Shown here in pieces: positions 3,233 through 43,126 of a stretch of DNA of 64,000 nucleotides. A model generated the notes under the pieces. It searched no databases. It was not told the DNA's origin and saw only the letters and a program-made list of their open reading frames with translations. The number at the start of each line of letters is the position of its first letter. The stretch's first letter is position 1. Source of the DNA: Escherichia coli O157:H7 (lineage in GTDB: Bacteria; Pseudomonadota; Gammaproteobacteria; Enterobacterales; Enterobacteriaceae). A program made the position numbers and the translations under genes. Location: assembly GCF_013167455.1 (NCBI RefSeq), contig NZ_CP038328.1; one strand, written 5' to 3'.

Positions 3233-4888
3233 ATGACTAATCTTCCCCACTGGTGGCAAAACGGCGTTATCTACCAGATTTATCCAAAGAGTTTTCAGGA
3301 CACCACGGGTAGCGGCACCGGCGATTTACGTGGCGTTATCCAACGCCTGGACTATCTGCATAAACTGGGCGTTGATGCCATCTGGCTAACCCCCTTTTAT
3401 GTCTCTCCGCAGGTCGATAACGGTTACGATGTAGCGAACTATACGGCGATTGATCCCACCTACGGCACGCTGGACGATTTTGACGAACTGGTGACGCAGG
3501 CAAAATCGCGCGGGATTCGTATCATTCTCGATATGGTGTTTAACCATACCTCTACCCAACATGCCTGGTTTCGCGAGGCGCTGAACAAAGAAAGCCCTTA
3601 CCGCCAGTTTTATATCTGGCGCGATGGCGAACCAGAAACGCCACCGAACAACTGGCGTTCAAAATTTGGCGGTAGTGCGTGGCGCTGGCATGCGGAAAGC
3701 GAACAGTACTATTTGCATCTCTTTGCACCAGAACAGGCGGATCTCAACTGGGAGAATCCAGCGGTACGCGCAGAGCTGAAAAAAGTCTGTGAGTTCTGGG
3801 CCGATCGTGGGGTCGACGGGTTGCGCCTGGATGTGGTGAATCTGATCTCCAAAGACCCGCGTTTCCCTGATGACCTGGATGGCGACGGGCGTCGCTTCTA
3901 CACCGACGGGCCACGAGCACACGAGTTTTTGCACGAGATGAACCGCGATGTGTTTACGCCACGCGGGTTAATGACCGTAGGTGAAATGTCCTCCACCAGC
4001 CTTGAGCATTGCCAGCGATACGCGGCACTGACAGGCAGTGAATTGTCGATGACCTTTAATTTTCATCACCTGAAGGTCGATTATCCCGGTGGTGAAAAAT
4101 GGACGCTGGCTAAACCTGACTTTGTGGCGTTGAAAACATTGTTCCGCCACTGGCAACAAGGAATGCACAACGTAGCATTGAATGCCTTGTTCTGGTGTAA
4201 CCACGATCAGCCGCGCATTGTTTCTCGCTTTGGTGATGAAGGTGAATACCGCGTGCCTGCGGCAAAAATGCTGGCGATGGTGCTGCATGGCATGCAGGGA
4301 ACGCCGTATATCTACCAGGGCGAAGAGATTGGCATGACCAACCCGCATTTCACGCGCATTACTGACTATCGCGACGTAGAGAGCCTCAATATGTTTGCCG
4401 AGCTGCGCAACGATGGGCGTGATGCCGACGAGTTATTGGCAATCCTCGCCAGTAAATCCCGTGACAACAGCCGCACGCCCATGCAATGGAGCAACGGCGA
4501 TAATGCCGGGTTTACGGCTGGCGAACCGTGGATTGGCCTGGGCGATAACTATCAACAAATCAACGTAGAAGCCGCGCTGGCCGATGAGTCCTCGGTGTTT
4601 TACACCTACCAAAAGTTAATCGCACTGCGTAAGCAGGAAGCCATCCTGACATGGGGCAATTACCAGGATCTGCTGCCAAACAGCCCTGTATTGTGGTGCT
4701 ATCGCCGTGAATGGAAGGGGCAAACCTTGCTGGTCATTGCCAACCTTAGCCGTGAGATCCAACCCTGGCAGCCAGGGCAAATGCGCGGCAACTGGCAGCT
4801 TGTGATGCATAACTACGAAGAAGCCTCACCACAACCCTGTGCCATGACTTTACGGCCTTTTGAGGCTGTCTGGTGGTTACAGAAGTAA
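3233..4888 (+). CDS. treC: trehalose-6-phosphate hydrolase, 551 aa (GH13)
   Basis: ORF-track 3086..4888 starts at an upstream TTG; the real start is the ATG giving MTNLPHWWQNGVIYQIYPKSF; alpha-amylase family motifs present. Confidence 0.95.
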   Translation: MTNLPHWWQNGVIYQIYPKSFQDTTGSGTGDLRGVIQRLDYLHKLGVDAIWLTPFYVSPQVDNGYDVANYTAIDPTYGTLDDFDELVTQAKSRGIRIILDMVFNHTSTQHAWFREALNKESPYRQFYIWRDGEPETPPNNWRSKFGGSAWRWHAESEQYYLHLFAPEQADLNWENPAVRAELKKVCEFWADRGVDGLRLDVVNLISKDPRFPDDLDGDGRRFYTDGPRAHEFLHEMNRDVFTPRGLMTVGEMSSTSLEHCQRYAALTGSELSMTFNFHHLKVDYPGGEKWTLAKPDFVALKTLFRHWQQGMHNVALNALFWCNHDQPRIVSRFGDEGEYRVPAAKMLAMVLHGMQGTPYIYQGEEIGMTNPHFTRITDYRDVESLNMFAELRNDGRDADELLAILASKSRDNSRTPMQWSNGDNAGFTAGEPWIGLGDNYQQINVEAALADESSVFYTYQKLIALRKQEAILTWGNYQDLLPNSPVLWCYRREWKGQTLLVIANLSREIQPWQPGQMRGNWQLVMHNYEEASPQPCAMTLRPFEAVWWLQK

Positions 4889-4900
4889 ATCTTCCCTAAG

Positions 4901-4934
4901 CCCCGGTAATGCCGGTCATTCCGGGGTTTTGTCT
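4901..4934 (+). terminator. rho-independent terminator after treC
   Basis: GC-rich hairpin CCCCGGTAATGCCGGTCATTCCGGGG followed by TTTTGTCTG. Confidence 0.6.
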
Positions 4935-5049
4935 GTCAGCATGTTGTTTTTGTTGATTTTTCAACCAGCAAATTCATTAAAAAATTTACATAACGCTGTA
5001 GCGCCCGTCATCCGTACGCTCTGCTTTTTACTTTGAGCTACATCAAAAA

Positions 5050-5130
5050 AAGTTCAAACATCCTTGATGCAAAGCACTATATATAGACTTTAAAATGCGT
5101 CCCAACCCAATATGTTGTATCAATCGACTA
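5050..5130 (+). promoter_or_regulatory. nrdDG promoter region: NrdR-box-like AT palindromes and FNR-like TTGAT half sites
   Basis: CACTATATATAG at ~5075-5086 and CAATATGTTGTAT at ~5108-5120; TTGATgcaa at ~5064-5072; assignment by resemblance to consensus only. Confidence 0.4.
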
Positions 5131-5169
5131 TAATTGCTACTACAGCTCCCCACGAAAAAGGTGCGGCGT

Positions 5170-5255
5170 TGTGGATAAGCGGATGGCGATTGCGGAAAGC
5201 ACCGGAAAACGAAACGAAAAAACCGGAAAACGCCTTTCCCAATTTCTGTGGATAA
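5170..5255 (-). promoter_or_regulatory. two consensus DnaA-box 9-mers (TTATCCACA on reverse strand) in the nrdD 5' region
   Basis: Plus strand shows TGTGGATAA at ~5170-5178 and again at ~5247-5255, same orientation, the second ~27 nt upstream of the nrdD ATG. Confidence 0.4.
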
Positions 5256-5281
5256 CCTGTTCTTAAAAATATGGAGCGATC

Positions 5282-7420
5282 ATGACACCGCATGTGATGA
5301 AACGAGACGGCTGCAAAGTGCCGTTTAAATCAGAGCGCATCAAAGAAGCGATTCTGCGTGCAGCTAAAGCAGCGGAAGTCGATGATGCCGATTATTGCGC
5401 CACTGTTGCTGCAGTTGTCAGCGAGCAGATGCAGGGCCGCAACCAGGTGGATATCAATGAGATCCAGACCGCTGTTGAAAACCAGCTGATGTCAGGTCCA
5501 TACAAACAACTGGCTCGTGCTTACATCGAGTACCGTCACGATCGCGACATTGAACGTGAAAAACGCGGTCGCCTGAATCAGGAGATCCGTGGTCTGGTCG
5601 AGCAGACCAACGCCTCGTTACTCAACGAAAACGCCAACAAAGACAGCAAGGTGATTCCAACCCAGCGCGACCTGCTGGCCGGGATCGTGGCTAAACACTA
5701 TGCACGTCAGCACCTGCTGCCGCGTGACGTGGTGCAGGCACATGAGCGTGGCGATATTCACTATCACGATCTCGATTACTCACCGTTTTTCCCGATGTTC
5801 AACTGCATGTTGATCGACCTGAAAGGCATGCTGACCCAGGGCTTTAAGATGGGGAACGCCGAGATTGAACCGCCGAAGTCGATCTCTACGGCAACCGCGG
5901 TAACTGCGCAGATTATTGCTCAGGTTGCCAGCCATATTTATGGCGGCACCACCATTAACCGTATCGATGAAGTGCTGGCACCGTTTGTCACCGCCAGCTA
6001 CAACAAACATCGCAAGACCGCAGAAGAGTGGAACATCCCGGACGCCGAAGGCTACGCTAACTCTCGTACCATTAAAGAGTGCTACGATGCCTTCCAGTCG
6101 CTGGAGTACGAAGTAAACACCCTGCACACCGCCAACGGTCAGACGCCGTTTGTAACCTTTGGTTTTGGTCTGGGCACCAGCTGGGAGTCGCGCCTGATTC
6201 AGGAATCTATCCTGCGTAACCGTATCGCAGGCCTCGGTAAAAACCGTAAAACTGCGGTGTTCCCGAAACTGGTGTTTGCGATTCGCGATGGTCTGAACCA
6301 TAAAAAAGGCGATCCGAACTACGACATCAAACAGCTGGCGCTGGAGTGCGCAAGCAAGCGCATGTATCCGGATATCCTGAACTACGATCAGGTAGTGAAA
6401 GTCACCGGTTCGTTTAAAACCCCGATGGGCTGCCGCAGCTTCCTCGGCGTGTGGGAAAATGAAAACGGCGAGCAGATCCACGATGGTCGTAACAACCTCG
6501 GCGTGATCAGCCTGAACCTGCCGCGTATTGCTCTGGAAGCAAAAGGCGATGAAGCCACCTTCTGGAAGCTGCTGGATGAACGTCTGGTGCTGGCACGTAA
6601 GGCTCTGATGACCCGTATCGCTCGTCTCGAAGGCGTGAAAGCGCGCGTGGCCCCGATCCTCTATATGGAAGGTGCTTGTGGCGTGCGTCTCAATGCTGAC
6701 GATGATATTTCTGAAATCTTCAAAAACGGTCGTGCGTCTATTTCGCTGGGTTACATCGGCATCCACGAAACCATTAACGCGCTGTTCGGCGGCGAACATG
6801 TTTACGACAACGAGCAGCTCCGCGCGAAAGGTATCGCCATTGTTGAACGTCTGCGTCAGGCAGTGGATCAGTGGAAAGAAGAAACGGGTTATGGTTTCAG
6901 TCTCTACAGCACGCCGAGTGAAAACCTGTGCGACCGCTTCTGCCGTCTCGATACTGCTGAGTTTGGCGTGGTGCCGGGCGTGACCGATAAAGGTTACTAC
7001 ACCAACAGTTTCCACCTCGATGTGGAGAAGAAGGTGAACCCGTACGACAAGATCGACTTTGAAGCGCCTTACCCGCCGCTGGCGAACGGTGGTTTCATTT
7101 GCTACGGCGAGTATCCAAACATTCAGCACAACCTGAAGGCGCTGGAAGATGTCTGGGATTACAGCTATCAGCATGTACCGTATTACGGCACCAATACACC
7201 GATTGATGAGTGCTACGAGTGTGGCTTTACCGGTGAGTTCGAGTGCACCAGCAAAGGCTTCACCTGCCCGAAATGTGGTAACCATGACGCCTCCCGTGTG
7301 TCGGTAACTCGCCGCGTGTGCGGATATTTAGGTAGCCCGGATGCACGTCCGTTTAACGCCGGCAAGCAGGAAGAAGTTAAGCGCCGCGTTAAACATTTGG
7401 GAAATGGGCAGATAGGTTGA
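5282..7420 (+). CDS. nrdD: anaerobic ribonucleoside-triphosphate reductase (class III), 712 aa
   Basis: Full ORF; N-terminal ATP-cone, C-terminal zinc ribbon (CYECGF...CPKCG) and glycyl-radical motif (RVCGYLG). Confidence 0.97.
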   Translation: MTPHVMKRDGCKVPFKSERIKEAILRAAKAAEVDDADYCATVAAVVSEQMQGRNQVDINEIQTAVENQLMSGPYKQLARAYIEYRHDRDIEREKRGRLNQEIRGLVEQTNASLLNENANKDSKVIPTQRDLLAGIVAKHYARQHLLPRDVVQAHERGDIHYHDLDYSPFFPMFNCMLIDLKGMLTQGFKMGNAEIEPPKSISTATAVTAQIIAQVASHIYGGTTINRIDEVLAPFVTASYNKHRKTAEEWNIPDAEGYANSRTIKECYDAFQSLEYEVNTLHTANGQTPFVTFGFGLGTSWESRLIQESILRNRIAGLGKNRKTAVFPKLVFAIRDGLNHKKGDPNYDIKQLALECASKRMYPDILNYDQVVKVTGSFKTPMGCRSFLGVWENENGEQIHDGRNNLGVISLNLPRIALEAKGDEATFWKLLDERLVLARKALMTRIARLEGVKARVAPILYMEGACGVRLNADDDISEIFKNGRASISLGYIGIHETINALFGGEHVYDNEQLRAKGIAIVERLRQAVDQWKEETGYGFSLYSTPSENLCDRFCRLDTAEFGVVPGVTDKGYYTNSFHLDVEKKVNPYDKIDFEAPYPPLANGGFICYGEYPNIQHNLKALEDVWDYSYQHVPYYGTNTPIDECYECGFTGEFECTSKGFTCPKCGNHDASRVSVTRRVCGYLGSPDARPFNAGKQEEVKRRVKHLGNGQIG

Positions 7421-28754: not shown

Positions 28755-29309
28755 ATGACCCTACGCAAGATTCTGGCACTCACCTGCCTGCTGTTGCCGA
28801 TGATGGCTTCCGCACATCAGTTCGAAACCGGTCAGCGAGTGCCGCCGATTGGCATTACCGATCGGGGCGAGTTGGTGCTTGATAAAGATCAGTTTAGCTA
28901 CAAAACCTGGAACAGCGCGCAGTTAGTGGGAAAAGTGCGAGTACTGCAACATATTGCTGGTCGCACCTCTGCAAAAGAGAAAAACGCGACGCTGATTGAA
29001 GCGATTAAATCAGCGAAGTTACCGCACGATCGTTACCAGACCACCACCATTGTTAACACCGACGACGCGATTCCGGGTTCCGGCATGTTTGTGCGCAGCA
29101 GTCTGGAGAGTAATAAAAAGCTTTATCCCTGGTCGCAGTTTATTGTCGATAGCAATGGCGTCGCGCGCGGTGCCTGGCAGCTGGATGAAGAAAGTTCCGC
29201 TGTAGTGGTGCTGGATAAAGACGGTCGCGTGCAATGGGCCAAAGACGGGGCGCTCACTCAGGAAGAGGTGCAGCAAGTGATGGACCTGCTGCAAAAGTTG
29301 CTCAAATAA
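28755..29309 (+). CDS. ytfJ: periplasmic protein YtfJ, 184 aa
   Basis: Full ORF with signal peptide (MTLRKILALTCLLLPMMASA). Confidence 0.9.
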   Translation: MTLRKILALTCLLLPMMASAHQFETGQRVPPIGITDRGELVLDKDQFSYKTWNSAQLVGKVRVLQHIAGRTSAKEKNATLIEAIKSAKLPHDRYQTTTIVNTDDAIPGSGMFVRSSLESNKKLYPWSQFIVDSNGVARGAWQLDEESSAVVVLDKDGRVQWAKDGALTQEEVQQVMDLLQKLLK

Positions 29310-29329
29310 TGGCAATAACATAAATTCTG

Positions 29330-29371
29330 CAAAAATAATTTTCCCCTATCGTTATCTATGGGATAGGGGAA
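29330..29371 (-). terminator. rho-independent terminator after ytfI (hairpin shared with convergent ytfJ)
   Basis: TTCCCCTATC...GATAGGGGAA 10-bp stem; T-tract on reverse strand (AATTATTTTT). Confidence 0.6.
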
Positions 29372-30310
29372 TTAAGTCTCTGAGTTCTTACGCCGAACTA
29401 ATACTGGTAACGCTAGTTGCTCTTTTTTAAACGCCTCAATGGTCGATTTATATTTCTCGCAAATCTTTTCTTTGGTAATATCACTATCTGCGGCCAGATT
29501 CGCACTTACTATCGCATCCACTTGTTCGGCTAATTCGACTTGTTGGCAACCCGCATTAACCAGAAAATTATAAATAAGAGAGTAATCTTCATCCTCCAAG
29601 ACAACAGAGGAACCATTACGAAAACGTTCATCCCCTCCATAGATTTTAAGCGCAAAGCCCAAAGATTCTATGACTATGGCAAAATTATCATCAATTATTT
29701 TTTCGTAAATATACCATCCATCGCACTGTTTAATTCCACCTCCTGGCCCTTGTAGTTCAAATTTACCCCGTTTTAATTTGCTTACTATATCATCCAATAA
29801 AGCATAACCTAAAGACACGTCACCAATCGCCTGGTGAATATAACCTTTAATCCTTTTCGGTATGTCAGACTGTTTTTTCTGCAGAATATCCCAGGCATAC
29901 AATCGTCTGTTTTGTTCTAACGGAAATTCACGGTTCTTGAAATCCATGAATGAGTTATACTCATTTATTGTTATGGGGATTTCTTCGTATTCAAATCCAC
30001 TGCCTCGCAATGTCATTGTATATTCGGCACCGTTATCTTTAAGGCTGAAACTGATAAGAAACTTATCCATAGCGTTAACAGTTTCATTTTTTGATGAAAG
30101 CACCTGATAACTACTTTTATCAATCTGAGTTGCGCAACGAAAGAACTCCCTCAAAGTTAACAGGCTATCATAATTCGAAATCCAATCTTTTTTCTTAAAT
30201 GCATGATGGATGTTGTTAAAAAAATTGTTTGAATGTGTTTTTGTATACGAAGACTTTACAAATAACTCCACCGCACCAATAAAATTATTGTGTCTGATCC
30301 TGGGTAACAT
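29372..30310 (-). CDS. ytfI: uncharacterized protein YtfI, 312 aa; AT-rich orphan gene
   Basis: Full ORF, visibly AT-rich relative to neighbours, no recognisable domain by eye; same position as ytfI in K-12. Confidence 0.8.
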   Translation of the reverse strand: MLPRIRHNNFIGAVELFVKSSYTKTHSNNFFNNIHHAFKKKDWISNYDSLLTLREFFRCATQIDKSSYQVLSSKNETVNAMDKFLISFSLKDNGAEYTMTLRGSGFEYEEIPITINEYNSFMDFKNREFPLEQNRRLYAWDILQKKQSDIPKRIKGYIHQAIGDVSLGYALLDDIVSKLKRGKFELQGPGGGIKQCDGWYIYEKIIDDNFAIVIESLGFALKIYGGDERFRNGSSVVLEDEDYSLIYNFLVNAGCQQVELAEQVDAIVSANLAADSDITKEKICEKYKSTIEAFKKEQLALPVLVRRKNSET

Positions 30311-30480
30311 ATGACAACCTTATTTTATTTGGTTACTTTATATCGCCATTAAATATCTCACTATAGAAGTAAACTATCAAAAAACGCTCATTATTAAAAT
30401 GTAACTTATTAGCAATTGAATTTTTGCACTTTAAATACAATCTCTTTTTATTTATAACTTTTTAGGTTGGGAGAAATCAG

Positions 30481-30516
30481 GATGGCAGAATCAGGAAATA
30501 CACTGTTTCTGCCATC
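30481..30516 (-). terminator. stem-loop downstream of cysQ (candidate terminator)
   Basis: GATGGCAGAA...TTCTGCCATC 10-bp arms with 16-nt loop. Confidence 0.45.
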
Positions 30517-30521
30517 TGAAT

Positions 30522-31262
30522 TTAGTAAATAGACACTCTGAACCCCGGATTCAGGAACGACTCGCGCGGAGTGTAATCCAGCGGTTTACCCTGCCAGTCG
30601 TGAACGTGCGCTCCGGCAGCTGCAGCCACAGCATGTCCAGCGGCGGTGTCCCAAATATTCGTTGGTCCGAAACGCGGGTACAGCTGCGCCTGTCCTTCCG
30701 CCACCAGGCAGAACTTCAGCGAAGAGCCGATGGACGTGGTCTGATGTTCGCCAAGCTGTTGCAGATACTCTTTCAGCTCCGCATCCGCATGAGAGCGGCT
30801 GATCACCACCAGCGGCGGGCGCGCATCGCGGACCTGAATCTGCTTGCGCACGCCGCACTCTTCTTTCCAGGCCTTGCCTTCTGCCGCGCTGTACATTACG
30901 TTCATTACCGGCGCATACACCACACCTAAAATCGGTTTGCCATGGTCAATGAGCGCAATGTTAACGGTGAATTCGCCATTACGTTTAATAAACTCTTTCG
31001 TACCATCCAGCGGGTCTACCAGCCAGTAACGCTGCCAGTGCTGACGGACTTCCCAACCGGGAGGATCTTCTTCAGAAAGGACCGGAATATCCGGTGTCAG
31101 CGTACGTAAACCGTCCATGATAACGGTGTGAGCGGCAATATCCGCTGCCGTTACCGGAGAATTGTCCGCTTTGCTGACGACGTCCATCGGTTTCGCCCCG
31201 TCGTAGACCTGCATAATGGCATCGCCTGCATTCCGTGCAAGCTGGCATACTTGATCTAACAT
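30522..31262 (-). CDS. cysQ: 3'(2'),5'-bisphosphate nucleotidase CysQ, 246 aa
   Basis: Full ORF; inositol monophosphatase family motifs (WLVDPLDGT). Confidence 0.95.
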
Positions 31263-40061: not shown

Positions 40062-41270
40062 TCAGGCTGTCGCCTGAATCATTTCGGTGGGTTCCTGCTT
40101 CAACGGGCGGCCTGACTGCACCATCTCCCCACAGGCAAGAACGGCGTGCCCCGCCGCTAAAATGTTACGAGCGCCATTTACATCAGCGTTCGCTGTATAT
40201 CCACATGCCTGGCATCTGAATTTACTTTGTGACAGGCGATTTTCTTTCGCTGTATGACCACAGCACGCGCAACGCTGGCTTGTGTACGCTGGCGGAACAG
40301 CAAGCACCTGACCGCCACGCCAGAGCTGCTTGTACTCAAGCTGGCGGCGCATTTCATACCAGCCCTGATCCAGTATCGAACGGTTTAAACCTGATTTTGC
40401 CCGGACATTGCGCCCCGGCTGGCTGACCGTACCCGCTGCTGACTTTGACATGTTGCTGACCTTCAAATCCTCAATGACTATCATTGCGTGGTTTTTGCTG
40501 ACGGTCGTTGTGACTTTGTGAAGGTAGTCCCTGCAGATATTTGCGATACAGGAATGCAGTCGCTGTATTTTGCGTTTCTGCTTCTGCCAGTTGTTGCTGA
40601 ATTTGACCTTGCGGCTTAACTGTCGCTGAAGTCTCGCCAGCGTCTTCTGGTTTTTCTGAAAACTGTTTACAGGTCCAAAGACTGTGCCATCTGACAGCGT
40701 GGCGAGTTTAGCCACGCCAGCATCCAGTCCGACCATTAATGCTGAAGGGTGAACCGGAGTTGATACTTCATTTTCAGTCTGAATACTGATGTACCACTTA
40801 CCGCAGGACTGGCTGGCAGTGACATTTTTCACAACACCCGTGACCTGACGGCTATTCCGGTAGCGCATCCAGCCAAGTTTCGGCAGAAAAATACGGCTGT
40901 TTTCCTGATCGAGCTTAACGCCCTGCGGGTAGCGGAATGCATCATTCTGTCCCCGCTTTTTGAATCGGGGAAAAGCAGCCCGCTTCCGGAAGAAGTTTTT
41001 GTAAGCCCGCTCAAGGTCTTTCAGTGACTGTTGCAATGGCTGTGACGGGGCATCTTTAAGCCATTGCGTTTCAGTGGCATTTTTCCACTCAACCAGCCAG
41101 GAAGCCATTTTCCCGTAAGGGATGTATTTATTACCGGCCTCATGATTCTCATTCTGAAGCGCCAGAGCACGATTGAAAACGAAACGACATGCGCCTGCGA
41201 AGCGCCTCATTTCACGCTCCTGTTGACCACCGGGTCTTAACTGGAATTTAAATGCCTGTAGTCGTTTCAC
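40062..41270 (-). CDS. tnpB: TnpB (IS605 OrfB family; putative RNA-guided endonuclease), 402 aa
   Basis: Full ORF; RuvC-I ([15 protein letters not shown]), RuvC-II ([11 protein letters not shown]), zinc finger CACCGH...CQACGY and RuvC-III ([11 protein letters not shown]) all present. Confidence 0.92.
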
Positions 41271-41277
41271 AGGCCAA

Positions 41278-41709
41278 ATGATACTTTGGTCTGTGAAAAA
41301 AGAAACCGATATCCGGCGTGGAAGGCATTGTGTTTTCCTGATGCATGTTCACCTGGTCTTTGTCACCAGATACCGACGCCAGATTTTTGACCATGACGCG
41401 ACAGAAAAACTACGCACTTACTTTTCAAAGGTATGTGCTGATTTTGAAGCTGAACTGGTTGAAATGGATGGCGAACCAGATCACGTCCATTTGTTAATTA
41501 ACTATCCTCCCAAACTGGCGATATCCAGTCTGGTAAACAGCCTCAAAGGCGTATCGGGTAGGTTACTGCGACGAGATCGACCAGATATTGCAGTCAGGTA
41601 TTACTACAAAGGCGTTTTGTGGAGTCCTGGCTATTTTGCCAGTAGCTGCGGAGGTGCGCCAATATCCGCCATCCGTCAATACATTGAACAACAGCAAACA
41701 CCTGGTTAG
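41278..41709 (+). CDS. tnpA: IS200/IS605-family Y1 (HUH) transposase TnpA, ~143 aa
   Basis: HUH motif (DHVHLL) and catalytic Tyr region (SPGYFASS); divergent from tnpB with start codons ~8 nt apart; true start may be a downstream Met. Confidence 0.9.
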
Positions 41710-42331: not shown

Positions 42332-43126
42332 ATGACATTACCAACCACTATTTATTCATTTCCTGCATATTTATCTCGTTTTTCGTCCACCGACAAACCA
42401 GTAAAATTAAAATTTCATCAATACGCACGCGCTACATTACTTTCAAATCGTGGAAGAGATCATAATTGCGATGGCAGACGTACTGTTGAGATCCACAAAC
42501 TAGATCTCTCAGACTGGCAAGCATTCAATAAGTTAGCAACGAAGTGTAATGCTTACGATGGAGTAACAATGAATGGTGATAATTCTTTTGGATGGAACCA
42601 TGAAGCTACATTAGATAATATTCACGCCCAGAAATACAATAAAGCTTACGCGGGTGCGAGGTTAACCGCAGAACTGAAATATTTATTGCAAGATGTCGAA
42701 TCCTTCGAACCCAACAGTAAATACACAATACACGAAGTGGTTTTGGGACCTGGTTATGGTACTCCAGACTATACCGGCCAAACGATAGGATACGTTGTAA
42801 CCCTTCCTGCCCAAATGCCTAATTGCTGGTCATCTGAACTACCAACAATCGATCTTTATATCGACCAACTTCGCACTGTTACAGGCGTTTCTAATGCCCT
42901 CGGATTCATCATTGCTGCATTGCTAAACGCGTATTCTGATTTACCCCATGATTTGAAAATTGGTCTGCGTTCCTTATCAAGTTCAGCCGCAATCTACTCG
43001 GGTTTGGGTTTCGAGCGAGTGCCGCAGGAGCGAGACATCAGTTGCGCTCGTATGTATCTAACGCCAGCAAACCATCCTGACTTATGGACACAAGAGAATG
43101 GTGAATGGATCTACTTGCGAAACTAA
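42332..43126 (+). CDS. yjfZ: uncharacterized protein YjfZ, 264 aa; AT-rich orphan
   Basis: Full ORF with AT-rich sequence and long AT-rich upstream region; no recognisable domain by eye. Confidence 0.85.
   Translation: MTLPTTIYSFPAYLSRFSSTDKPVKLKFHQYARATLLSNRGRDHNCDGRRTVEIHKLDLSDWQAFNKLATKCNAYDGVTMNGDNSFGWNHEATLDNIHAQKYNKAYAGARLTAELKYLLQDVESFEPNSKYTIHEVVLGPGYGTPDYTGQTIGYVVTLPAQMPNCWSSELPTIDLYIDQLRTVTGVSNALGFIIAALLNAYSDLPHDLKIGLRSLSSSAAIYSGLGFERVPQERDISCARMYLTPANHPDLWTQENGEWIYLRN

Follow-up and report, generated by a model that had tools for sequence, protein, structure and literature searches.

ytfI, an AT-rich orphan gene inserted between ytfJ and cysQ in Escherichia, as a probable H-NS-bound single-gene cassette

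The closest described counterparts of the locus analyzed here are the H-NS-bound xenogeneic genes of E. coli and Salmonella, the intrinsic terminators of convergent genes and the ORFans of the E. coli y-ome. ytfI itself is a typical "y-gene" of E. coli, which has figured in annotations for about 30 years and occurs in both K-12 and O157:H7. Its nature as a foreign, H-NS-bound and strain-specific insertion is already published, as ChAP-seq in K-12 presented ytfI as an H-NS-bound strain-specific insertion (Higashi et al. 2016, PLoS Genet, PMC4720273, S10 Fig). According to the part of the same study that deals with ytfI, the H-NS signal on cpdB, cysQ, ytfJ and ytfK is missing in the ytfI-less strains SE11 and SE15, and in K-12 H-NS spreads from the ytfI segment to its neighbours only where ytfI is present (PMC4720273).

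A 64-kb stretch of E. coli O157:H7 DNA, hereafter the window, was analyzed around this gene. The reading we favour, with a probability of roughly 0.8, is that ytfI is a single-gene xenogeneic cassette with its own promoter and both flanking hairpins, bound by H-NS and encoding an accessory product. According to this reading, a 1.22-kb AT-rich segment would have entered the 11-bp tail-to-tail overlap of ytfJ and cysQ, H-NS would bind the cassette and keep ytfI largely silent, and the hairpins, acting as Rho-independent terminators, would set the 3' ends of cysQ, ytfI and possibly ytfJ, the cysQ hairpin shielding the cassette promoter from cysQ read-through. To the published picture the present analysis adds the insertion point, located to a few bases in the overlap, and an empty site that is ancestral across the family. 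It further adds two hairpins that came with the insert and are now putative 3' ends for neighbouring core genes, purifying selection on a strict orphan with a localized variable patch, and a junction reused by unrelated cargo. The locus is a well-documented case of a known phenomenon rather than a surprise. Its features are collected in Table 1; the coordinates given in the first-pass annotation of this DNA were right to within a few bases.

Table 1. Features of the ytfI locus, in positions of the 64-kb window
Feature	Position	Strand	Description
AT-rich insert, ~1.22 kb	29306..30521	.	35% GC; relative to ytfI-less genomes
Hairpin 1, putative ytfI terminator	29341..29371	-	arms 29341-29350 and 29362-29371, 10/10 complementary, 11-nt loop
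ytfI CDS	29372..30310	-	312 aa, ATG start, 35.9 kDa, pI 6.3
AT-rich upstream tract	30311..30480	.	~28% GC; contains promoter-like site and Shine-Dalgarno
Sigma-70-type promoter-like site, ytfI	30352..30380	-	TTGATA, 17-nt spacer, TG-n-GATATT (extended -10)
Hairpin 2, probable cysQ terminator	30481..30516	-	perfect 10-bp arms 30481-30490 and 30507-30516, 16-nt loop

Insertion into the ytfJ/cysQ overlap

The distribution of the gene was surveyed in complete E. coli genomes, 1622 of 5426 of which (30%) carry ytfI, in one copy per genome (median 1 place). In the ytfI-less E. coli genomes ytfJ and cysQ overlap by 11 bp, and the two genes abut or overlap tail to tail in about 70 further Enterobacteriaceae species, with the abutting arrangement found in Citrobacter, Salmonella, Klebsiella, Enterobacter, Kluyvera and others. 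E. whittamii and other Escherichia lacking ytfI display the same seamless overlap as these genera. Since ytfI-less E. coli and other Enterobacteriaceae share this abutment, the empty site is ancestral and the 1.22 kb is an insertion. The junctions, defined by comparison with E. whittamii and further empty sites, fall within the former 11-bp overlap (TTAATAAATAG), and the net gain in length is 1220 bp with respect to both BL21 and clone D i2, which lack ytfI. On the minus strand the elements of the insert follow each other in this order: the hairpin next to the cysQ stop, the AT-rich region with the promoter-like site, ytfI itself, and the hairpin next to the ytfI stop.

The composition of the gene was compared with that of all further ORFs in the window that reach 150 aa, 44 in number. 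The GC content of ytfI is 36.5% vs 52.9 +/- 2.8% in this set (z = -5.9) and its GC3 34.5% vs 59.0 +/- 6.1% (z = -4.0), while GC in 300-nt windows reaches a minimum of 31% at the locus. A codon index trained on the other window genes gave 0.564 for ytfI vs 0.678 +/- 0.056 (z = -2.0), the second lowest value of 45, and rare codons account for 8.3% of the gene vs 3.2%. The composition is not ordinary, and the earlier description of a 312-aa AT-rich ORF unlike its neighbours agrees with these figures.

The first-pass annotation had also proposed an old horizontal acquisition, and both parts of this proposal found support. The patchy presence of ytfI, the ancestral empty site and the AT-richness of the inserted segment point to horizontal acquisition. 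As to age, divergent Escherichia lineages carry, at this same locus, alleles whose amino-acid identity is down to 77% and 69%, and the synonymous divergence of ytfI tracks that of cysQ (0.68 vs 0.66 in the most distant pair). As no donor lineage of the insert was found, the horizontal origin is argued from composition and distribution. We conclude that ytfI is a real gene on an AT-rich foreign segment that was inserted between the core genes ytfJ and cysQ in an Escherichia ancestor.

The divergent alleles at a constant locus, with dS like that of cysQ, would also fit a gene ancestral to Escherichia whose absence reflects repeated deletion, and secondary deletions do exist. We consider this very unlikely, because the ytfI-less Escherichia show the same seamless overlap as Citrobacter, Salmonella and Klebsiella, and an exact overlap would not be recreated time after time; the sole clear deletion allele, which arose via IS1, leaves a scar, and the composition of ytfI is foreign. 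Besides this IS1-mediated deletion, an IS adjacent to ytfI was observed as a further sign of decay at the locus.

Unrelated cargo has also entered the ytfJ/cysQ junction, on separate occasions, in E. albertii, Citrobacter youngae and Kluyvera.

Coding status, orphan status and possible roles of YtfI

At the composition of ytfI, 312 open codons would arise by chance with a probability of about 1e-11; each of the other five frames is interrupted by 13-39 stops. The reading frame is still intact in alleles as divergent as 69% identity, dN/dS among alleles ranges from 0.12 to 0.41, and the non-synonymous rate exceeds that of cysQ about 20-fold. When the protein was divided into segments, pN/pS amounted to 0.06-0.39 for aa 1-157, the N-terminal half, and to 0.36-1.05 for a variable patch (aa ~154-208), values that are nowhere convincingly above 1, and no positive selection is claimed. 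As the frame remains open to 31% amino-acid divergence, with dN/dS well below 1 and dS parallel to cysQ, ytfI is a real protein-coding gene under purifying selection.

These data bear on the possibility that ytfI is a non-functional relic, a piece of unexpressed foreign DNA heading for loss. Such a reading would account for the 70% of E. coli genomes without the gene, the IS-mediated deletion and IS insertions at the locus, H-NS binding together with poor codon usage, the low confidence of the AlphaFold model, and the common occurrence of truncated or frameshifted alleles (P0026, 251 aa with 729 member sequences; Shigella partials). It is nevertheless improbable in view of the length of the open frame and its integrity across divergent alleles, of the low dN/dS both overall and in the N-terminal half, and of the conservation of the Shine-Dalgarno sequence, the -35 element and the putative terminator. 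Within the favoured reading, that of a functional cassette, we tentatively regard ytfI as dispensable and as lost or truncated in many lineages.

Homology searches returned no family for the protein. YtfI gave no match in Pfam even at E <= 10, in NCBIfam at E <= 1 or in a PDB sequence profile search at E <= 10. A phmmer search of 1.84 billion representatives retrieved YtfI fragments only, apart from P0019, in which 30-48 residues matched a repeated "DxDYxLxY..N.NAG" surface-repeat motif, judged a chance motif resemblance. When 5.8 billion clusters were searched, first with the single sequence and also with a profile, Escherichia/Shigella YtfI alone was retrieved. All relatives in these sets (1.8 + 5.8 billion proteins) are Escherichia/Shigella alleles of 69-100% identity and always occupy this locus. 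Neither tblastn against 50,697 phage records nor a scan of IMG/VR with the allele profile produced a match, and the plasmid matches obtained by tblastn were 4.9-Mb chromosomes or 655-kb split chromosomes misfiled as plasmids, not mobile carriers. PHROG 3250, of unknown function, matched at E 0.0015-0.019 and the match was lost in the 69% allele, so that membership was not accepted. YtfI is a strict Escherichia/Shigella orphan. The empty Pfam and NCBIfam results fit the earlier remark that the protein has no recognizable domain, and homology to a housekeeping family, which would have spoken against the proposed origin, was not found.

No transmembrane segment or signal peptide was predicted for YtfI. 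AlphaFold2 returned a pLDDT of 38 from the single sequence, and a pLDDT of 52.7 with a pTM of 0.37 from an alignment of 9 alleles. The resulting model and the AFDB entry for YtfI superpose poorly (TM 0.35), and both are therefore unreliable. Like the beta4-alpha folds of PUR-alpha and Whirly proteins, the model has 4-5 beta strands preceding a helix, an arrangement that occurs twice (aa 60-126 and 180-253), and PUR-alpha headed both the PDB and the AFDB50 lists when this low-confidence model was submitted to Foldseek. No significant structural superposition was obtained, and this fold was rejected as evidence. An internal repeat was sought with hhalign, with negative result. With low confidence, we picture YtfI as a cytoplasmic, soluble protein of alpha/beta type that combines constraint in its N-terminal half with a fast-evolving patch, and its role as conditionally useful and accessory, of the conflict/defence or stress kind rather than housekeeping.

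A more specific proposal is that YtfI is a single-gene anti-phage defence or immunity protein, with an N-terminal effector and with the variable patch recognizing the target, which H-NS keeps off until needed. The accessory distribution of ytfI, its AT-richness and H-NS binding, the higher pN/pS of the patch than of the N-terminal half and the presence of other accessory cargo at the ytfJ/cysQ junction in other genera would all suit such a protein. In PADLOC-DB v2 a partial match to Cas6b (aa 112-152, E 5e-4 to 6e-3, 14-18 bits) persists in all alleles; however, it covers 40 of the 240 profile positions, no PADLOC model was significant, and membership was rejected since the match is sub-threshold and neither a CRISPR array nor a cas gene lies in the vicinity. 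The locus does not form a defence island, ytfI has no partner gene, pN/pS does not exceed 1 and no link between ytfI and phages was found in the literature. Moreover, most defence genes spread widely, but the searches revealed no relative of YtfI among phages, on plasmids or in another genus. On balance we hold a defence function to be unlikely; if it were true that YtfI has a defence or immunity role, the family would be new. The wider idea that YtfI founds a genus-restricted family of conflict proteins, silenced by H-NS, its presence/absence polymorphism kept since before the Escherichia species split and the junction serving as a cross-genus landing pad for unrelated cargo, is likewise improbable.

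Literature data raise a third option, that of a stress-protection factor acting in heat shock or oxidative chlorine stress. According to the passages on ytfI in the respective papers, cells overexpressing the gene from ASKA grew at three times the MIC of NaOCl (PMC8228696), the sigma-32 ChIP score of ytfI was among the highest in Wade et al. 2006 (quoted in PMC3870955), and ytfI is listed with multi-stress-responsive uncharacterized genes (PMC9501238). The sigma-32 signal, however, was not reproduced and is presented as a ChIP-chip false positive in the corresponding passages of PMC2996942 and PMC3870955. Overexpression screens yield many indirect matches, 70% of E. coli do without ytfI, and Pfam and NCBIfam reveal no redox or chaperone motif in YtfI, so we judge a dedicated stress function decidedly improbable. 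A literature search for b4215 retrieved no relevant paper. A toxin-antitoxin module was discarded, as the insert contains one 312-aa ORF, the other ORFs being out-of-frame overlaps, and no Rfam RNA.

Promoter, hairpins and H-NS binding

The promoter-like site upstream of ytfI agrees with the consensus at 9 of 12 positions, with the TG present, and is a consensus match only. No allele departs from TTGATA at the -35, and the -10 varies. A Shine-Dalgarno AAGG at 30318-30321, 7 nt upstream of the ytfI ATG, is conserved among the alleles. The 211-bp upstream tract as a whole (30311-30521) has 28% GC and contains no ORF of at least 40 aa.

Hairpin 1 directly adjoins the TAA stop of ytfI, and on the minus strand AAAUUAUUUUUG comes after its stem. 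On this strand the predicted fold has -18.4 kcal/mol (z = -4.5; 0 of 200 shuffles as good); on the plus strand z is -2.2 and the U-tract is weaker. Stem and T-tract are kept in all alleles including the 69% one, with a CCCCTA/TAGGGG core. The cysQ stop codon (30522-30524) is followed after 5 nt by hairpin 2, which belongs to a 21-nt inverted repeat of 81% and folds on the minus strand with -21.4 kcal/mol (z = -5.8); its U-tract is weak and interrupted (CCUGAUUUCUCCC). All alleles retain this hairpin, in L007/L010 with a single compensatory exchange of G-C for U-A at the base of the stem, and ytfI-less genomes lack it. Two perfect 10-bp stems were observed in 1.35 kb vs 0.09 expected from shuffles. 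About eight such perfect 10-bp hairpins occur in the entire window.

From these sequence features, the hairpins are putative Rho-independent terminators of ytfI (hairpin 1) and cysQ (hairpin 2); hairpin 1 may also stop convergent plus-strand transcripts of ytfJ, and hairpin 2 would probably terminate cysQ and shield the ytfI promoter from read-through. Intrinsic terminators typically have a short loop (3-8 nt) and an unbroken U-tract behind the stem, and the loops here measure 11 and 16 nt. A consensus terminator scan flagged neither hairpin, and Rfam at a permissive E-value gave no match in the insert. As the ancestral locus with overlapping ytfJ and cysQ has no hairpin, both were imported with the insert. 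The perfect 10-bp-stem hairpin at the 3' end of ytfI, and the 10-bp-arm inverted repeat with an AT-rich tract on its 5' side, are thus present as the first-pass annotation had reported them. Its picture of a gene bracketed by strong hairpins holds insofar as these are real, stable and conserved; they are no special trait of the island, and appear to be ordinary terminators, each placed directly after a stop codon.

The position of the hairpins near both ends of the insert, together with an AAATA-type repeat at both junctions (5 nt, too short for significance), might instead indicate the ends of a mobile element of MITE, IS or integron-cassette type. We give this very little credence, since the hairpins show no sequence relationship to each other, the insert lacks terminal repeats of either orientation as well as a transposase or integrase ORF, it is single-copy per genome and Rfam found nothing in it, and each hairpin directly follows a stop codon and has a U-rich run downstream on the transcribed strand.

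As to H-NS, the earlier suggestion that the gene is probably silenced agrees with the binding published for K-12, in the part of PMC4720273 that treats ytfI. That binding refers to K-12 and not to O157, and from it we infer that ytfI is kept largely silent; in the literature passages that mention ytfI, no report of its expression in an hns mutant was found. The upstream tract and the gene body are likely the region of H-NS nucleation and spreading. A scan for the H-NS motif (TCGWTWAATT, up to 2 mismatches) was uninformative, as all sites in the insert have 2 mismatches and are not enriched over the whole window.

Comparison with described systems

The ytfI cassette, as we read it, resembles the H-NS-bound xenogeneic genes of E. 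coli and Salmonella in being AT-rich, with a GC content far below the host mean, and strain-specific. The higher dN reported for H-NS-bound genes, in the relevant part of PMC4720273, has its counterpart in the non-synonymous rate of ytfI relative to cysQ. It differs from them in being one 1.2-kb gene rather than a multi-gene island, and in lacking mobility genes, a tRNA or att site and an identifiable donor.

With the intrinsic terminators of convergent genes the two hairpins share stable G+C-containing stems placed directly after stops and followed by a U-rich run, and like them they are conserved, the alleles differing by one compensatory base-pair change. Their loops are long (11 and 16 nt) in comparison, the cysQ hairpin has a broken U-tract, and both arrived with the insert instead of having evolved in place.

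Finally, like other y-ome ORFans, ytfI has no Pfam or NCBIfam family and no solved or confidently predicted structure, is confined to one genus and is annotated only as "protein YtfI". Compared with these, its orphan status was tested against 1.8 + 5.8 billion proteins, its coding status is backed by dN/dS, and its insertion point is located to a few bases.

Layout, composition and homology of ytfI

The interval 29310-30521 (1212 bp) matches E. coli O157:H7 chromosomes at 100% identity and K-12 at 98.3%, and the matching stretch in those genomes carries the RefSeq name "ytfI: protein YtfI". A Shine-Dalgarno motif (AAGG) occurs 7 nt upstream of the ORF.

Features of the ytfJ-ytfI-cysQ region
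Feature	Coordinates	Strand	Description
ytfJ	28755-29309	plus	flank of ytfI
Hairpin 1 (ytfI side)	arms 29341-29350 and 29362-29371		10/10 complementary, 11-nt loop
ytfI ORF	29372-30310	minus	312 aa
ytfI promoter-like site	30380-30352	minus	TTGATA + 17-nt spacer + TG-n-GATATT
Hairpin 2 (cysQ side)	arms 30481-30490 and 30507-30516		perfect 10-bp arms within a 21-nt imperfect inverted repeat
cysQ	30522-31262	minus	flank of ytfI

The first-pass annotation had described ytfI as AT-rich compared with its neighbours and bracketed by hairpins, and this observation was confirmed. Against 44 other long ORFs of the window, ytfI showed a GC content of 36.5% (mean 52.9 ± 2.8%, z = -5.9) and a GC3 of 34.5% (59.0 ± 6.1%, z = -4.0), and the tract upstream of it (30311-30521) has a GC content of 28%. 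The codon index, calculated with the other window genes as reference set, was the second lowest among 45 genes (z = -2.0), and rare codons were 2.6-fold enriched. A second compositional outlier (42332-43126, plus strand; 264 aa, GC 42%, GC3 36%) ranks last of all window genes by codon index and adjoins the rpsF-priB-rpsR-rplI operon; it probably corresponds to yjfZ, which is likewise uncharacterised. The window also contains a divergent ORF pair typical of an IS200/IS605-family element, comprising a 402-aa TnpB-like (OrfB) protein that ends in a zinc-ribbon motif (40062-41270, minus) and a 143-aa Y1 transposase-like TnpA (41278-41709, plus), both recognised by eye from the translations only.

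YtfI (35.9 kDa, pI 6.3, without transmembrane segment) returned no match in Pfam at E <= 10 or in NCBIfam, in agreement with the earlier statement that it has no recognisable domain. A phmmer search of 1.84 billion representatives retrieved only YtfI fragments and one motif match judged to be due to chance, while single-sequence and 9-allele profile searches of 5.8 billion clusters found only Escherichia and Shigella entries. PDB sequences, 50,697 phage records and IMG/VR gave no match, and PHROGs returned one family of unknown function (E 0.0015-0.019), absent in the 69% identity allele. A 40-residue partial match to Cas6b (PADLOC), seen in all alleles at E 5e-4 to 6e-3, was far below membership level and was discarded, as was plasmid carriage, the plasmid matches being misfiled chromosomes. 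The UniProt label "Galectin domain-containing protein" on two YtfI fragments (A0A3A6TYV3 and A0A377DE36, AFDB50; 89-95% identity) looks like an automatic annotation artefact, since a Pfam scan of YtfI shows no such domain at E <= 10.

The ytfJ/cysQ junction as an insertion site

Of 5426 complete E. coli genomes, 5420 matched a ytfJ-to-cysQ query, only 1610 of them with full coverage; in the others the alignment was split in two, with a total span of 1288 bp instead of 2508 bp. The RefSeq annotation of BL21 and clone D i2 gives ytfJ (558 bp) and cysQ an 11-bp tail-to-tail overlap, with the sequence CTGCTGCATAAATTAATTAATAAATAGACAC. The same overlap, TTAATAAATAG, was located at 848-858 in two ytfI-less E. 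coli loci (L001/L002), without an intergenic hairpin, and corresponds to window positions 29299-29309 and 30522-30532. The YtfJ C-terminus is altered from ...LLHKLINK to ...LLQKLLK by the insertion.

The ytfJ loci from 80 species (GTDB genome set) were then compared, with ytfJ, cysQ and YtfI located by tblastn. In nearly all of them ytfJ and cysQ abut or overlap, including Citrobacter, Salmonella, Klebsiella, Raoultella, Enterobacter, Kosakonia, Kluyvera, Leclercia and Pluralibacter, as well as E. whittamii and the representatives of three further Escherichia species; tblastn found no YtfI match in these loci, whose junctions are homologous in sequence. Only one other species representative, labelled E. 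coli SCPM-O-B-8794 (L010), carries ytfI. The empty junction across species and its homology thus show that the ytfI-less arrangement is the ancestral state, and sequence comparison identifies the AT-rich stretch between about 29306 and 30521 as an insertion into the 11-bp overlap. The proposed horizontal acquisition is upheld by low GC, patchy presence and an ancestral empty site across genera. The insert (35% GC, net +1220 bp) contains both hairpins and is single-copy per genome; it has no terminal inverted repeats, transposase or integrase, and its junctions share only an AAATA-type recurrence.

Including ytfI, four unrelated cargos were found at this one convergent junction across genera. 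In E. albertii NBRC 107761 (L014 4556-6059), the site equivalent to window ~29306-30521 holds a different AT-rich insert (1504 bp, 33% GC) encoding a 385-aa ORF (4792-5949) with pentapeptide repeats, no YtfI similarity and weak NCBIfam matches, including the N-terminal region of a T3SS HECT-type effector (SopA-like, E 4e-5). Citrobacter youngae ATCC 29220 (L042 4559-6678) carries a 2.1-kb insert at whose flanks about 35 bp of the ytfJ 3' end are duplicated. It encodes a membrane protein that combines a TIGR04222 domain with a C-terminal tail rich in Cys, Gly and Ser, and a radical SAM/SPASM maturase; the two look like a peptide-modification pair. Two Kluyvera loci (L066 4556-5459 and L069 4556-5460) share an insert of about 905 bp (55% GC) encoding a serine-type D-Ala-D-Ala carboxypeptidase-like protein (E 6e-14 to PRK10001).

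Coding status, age and loss of ytfI

The chance of 312 stop-free codons at ytfI composition is about 1e-11, and the other five frames contain 13-39 stops. Alleles with 77% (P0027) and 69% (P0029) amino-acid identity retain intact ORFs at exactly the same cysQ/ytfJ locus. Across seven alleles, dN/dS (Nei-Gojobori) was 0.12-0.41 for ytfI versus 0.01-0.05 for cysQ, while dS was similar for the two genes between O157 and K-12 (0.070 and 0.066) and between O157 and L007, a locus with the 69% allele (0.68 and 0.66). Taken together, the improbable open frame, intact divergent alleles, dN/dS and flank-tracking dS show that ytfI is a real gene. Since ytfI dS tracks that of cysQ and divergent alleles share the locus, the insertion predates the split of these Escherichia lineages, in line with the suggested old acquisition. 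The L003 allele showed a higher ytfI dS (0.36) than cysQ (0.21) and ytfJ (0.09), which suggests either flanks homogenised by recombination or a faster-mutating insert.

Along the gene, pN/pS was 0.06-0.39 in the N-terminal half (codons 1-160) and 0.36-1.05 at codons ~161-215, a 55-codon patch in which allele P0022, with flanks 98.4% identical to O157, has 21 non-synonymous changes. Constraint on the C-terminal tail is loose too. In no segment of ytfI was pN/pS convincingly above 1. A conditionally useful accessory role of the conflict or defence type is considered unlikely.

Truncated and frameshifted forms also occur, namely the 251-aa P0026, N-terminally truncated and with 729 member sequences, P0028 and P0036, both frameshifted, and partial forms in Shigella; that ytfI is a decaying relic seems improbable beside the intact divergent alleles. 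In E. coli ETEC1738 (L095 1371-2664), an IS1 element takes the place of ytfI and of the ytfJ 3' end, ytfJ being annotated there as a pseudogene, and a 164-bp remnant of the ytfI promoter region is left beside cysQ. Unlike the clean ancestral empty site, this IS1-mediated deletion is a scarred secondary loss.

Candidate terminators and H-NS binding

Both hairpins were located where they had been placed, with perfect 10-bp stems, of which there are two in 1.35 kb versus about 0.09 expected and about eight across the 64-kb window. Folded as minus-strand RNA, hairpin 1 reached -18.4 kcal/mol (z = -4.5) and hairpin 2 -21.4 kcal/mol (z = -5.8), with 0/200 shuffles as good in either case; the plus-strand fold of hairpin 1 is weaker (z = -2.2). 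Hairpin 1 begins at the base after the ytfI TAA and is followed on the minus strand by AAAUUAUUUUUG, while hairpin 2 begins 5 nt past the cysQ TAA, upstream of the ytfI promoter-like site. Every allele examined, the most divergent included, keeps both: hairpin 1 retains a CCCCTA/TAGGGG core and T-tract, and the basal pair of hairpin 2 has undergone a single compensatory exchange, being G-C in most alleles but U-A in L007/L010. We read them as putative Rho-independent terminators brought in by the cassette, with long loops and a cysQ tail only moderately U-rich; neither was flagged by a consensus scan or matched an Rfam family. In the ancestral overlap, which lacks a hairpin, each transcript must end inside the other gene. 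Hairpin 2 would terminate cysQ transcripts and insulate the ytfI promoter, and hairpin 1 would terminate ytfI transcripts and perhaps convergent ytfJ transcripts as well. In L007 (6967-7421) and L008 (4146-5126), which belong to the lineage carrying the 69% allele, an IS with DDE_Tnp_1/DUF772 domains, about 45 bp past the ytfI stop, replaces the terminator hairpin present in L010, whose near-identical allele differs only at the C-terminus.

Higashi et al. 2016 (PMC4720273) use ytfI to illustrate strain-specific insertions bound by H-NS in K-12. SE11 and SE15, which do not carry ytfI, give no H-NS signal on cpdB, cysQ, ytfJ and ytfK, and the authors also report higher dN for H-NS-bound genes. 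Two further papers (PMC2996942, PMC3870955) deal with the sigma-32 ChIP-chip targets of Wade et al., which are disputed; the ytfI score was among the highest of these, but the signal was not reproduced and was presented as a false-positive example. With ytfI overexpressed from the ASKA collection, cells reportedly grew in NaOCl at three times the MIC, in a listing that labels the gene "uncharacterized" (PMC8228696). We give little weight to a conditionally useful stress-related accessory role. The remaining mentions in the literature are gene lists.

These data support the earlier interpretation. We take ytfI to be a single-gene xenogeneic cassette (terminator, AT-rich promoter, ORF, terminator) that entered the ytfJ/cysQ overlap in an Escherichia ancestor, is probably bound by H-NS, from which we infer silencing, and has been kept as a presence/absence polymorphism, its product being a predicted soluble orphan protein that evolves under relaxed purifying selection. 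For K-12, the central point of this interpretation, that the insertion is foreign and H-NS-bound, has been published before. The gene has long been annotated, and it exemplifies a known phenomenon well.
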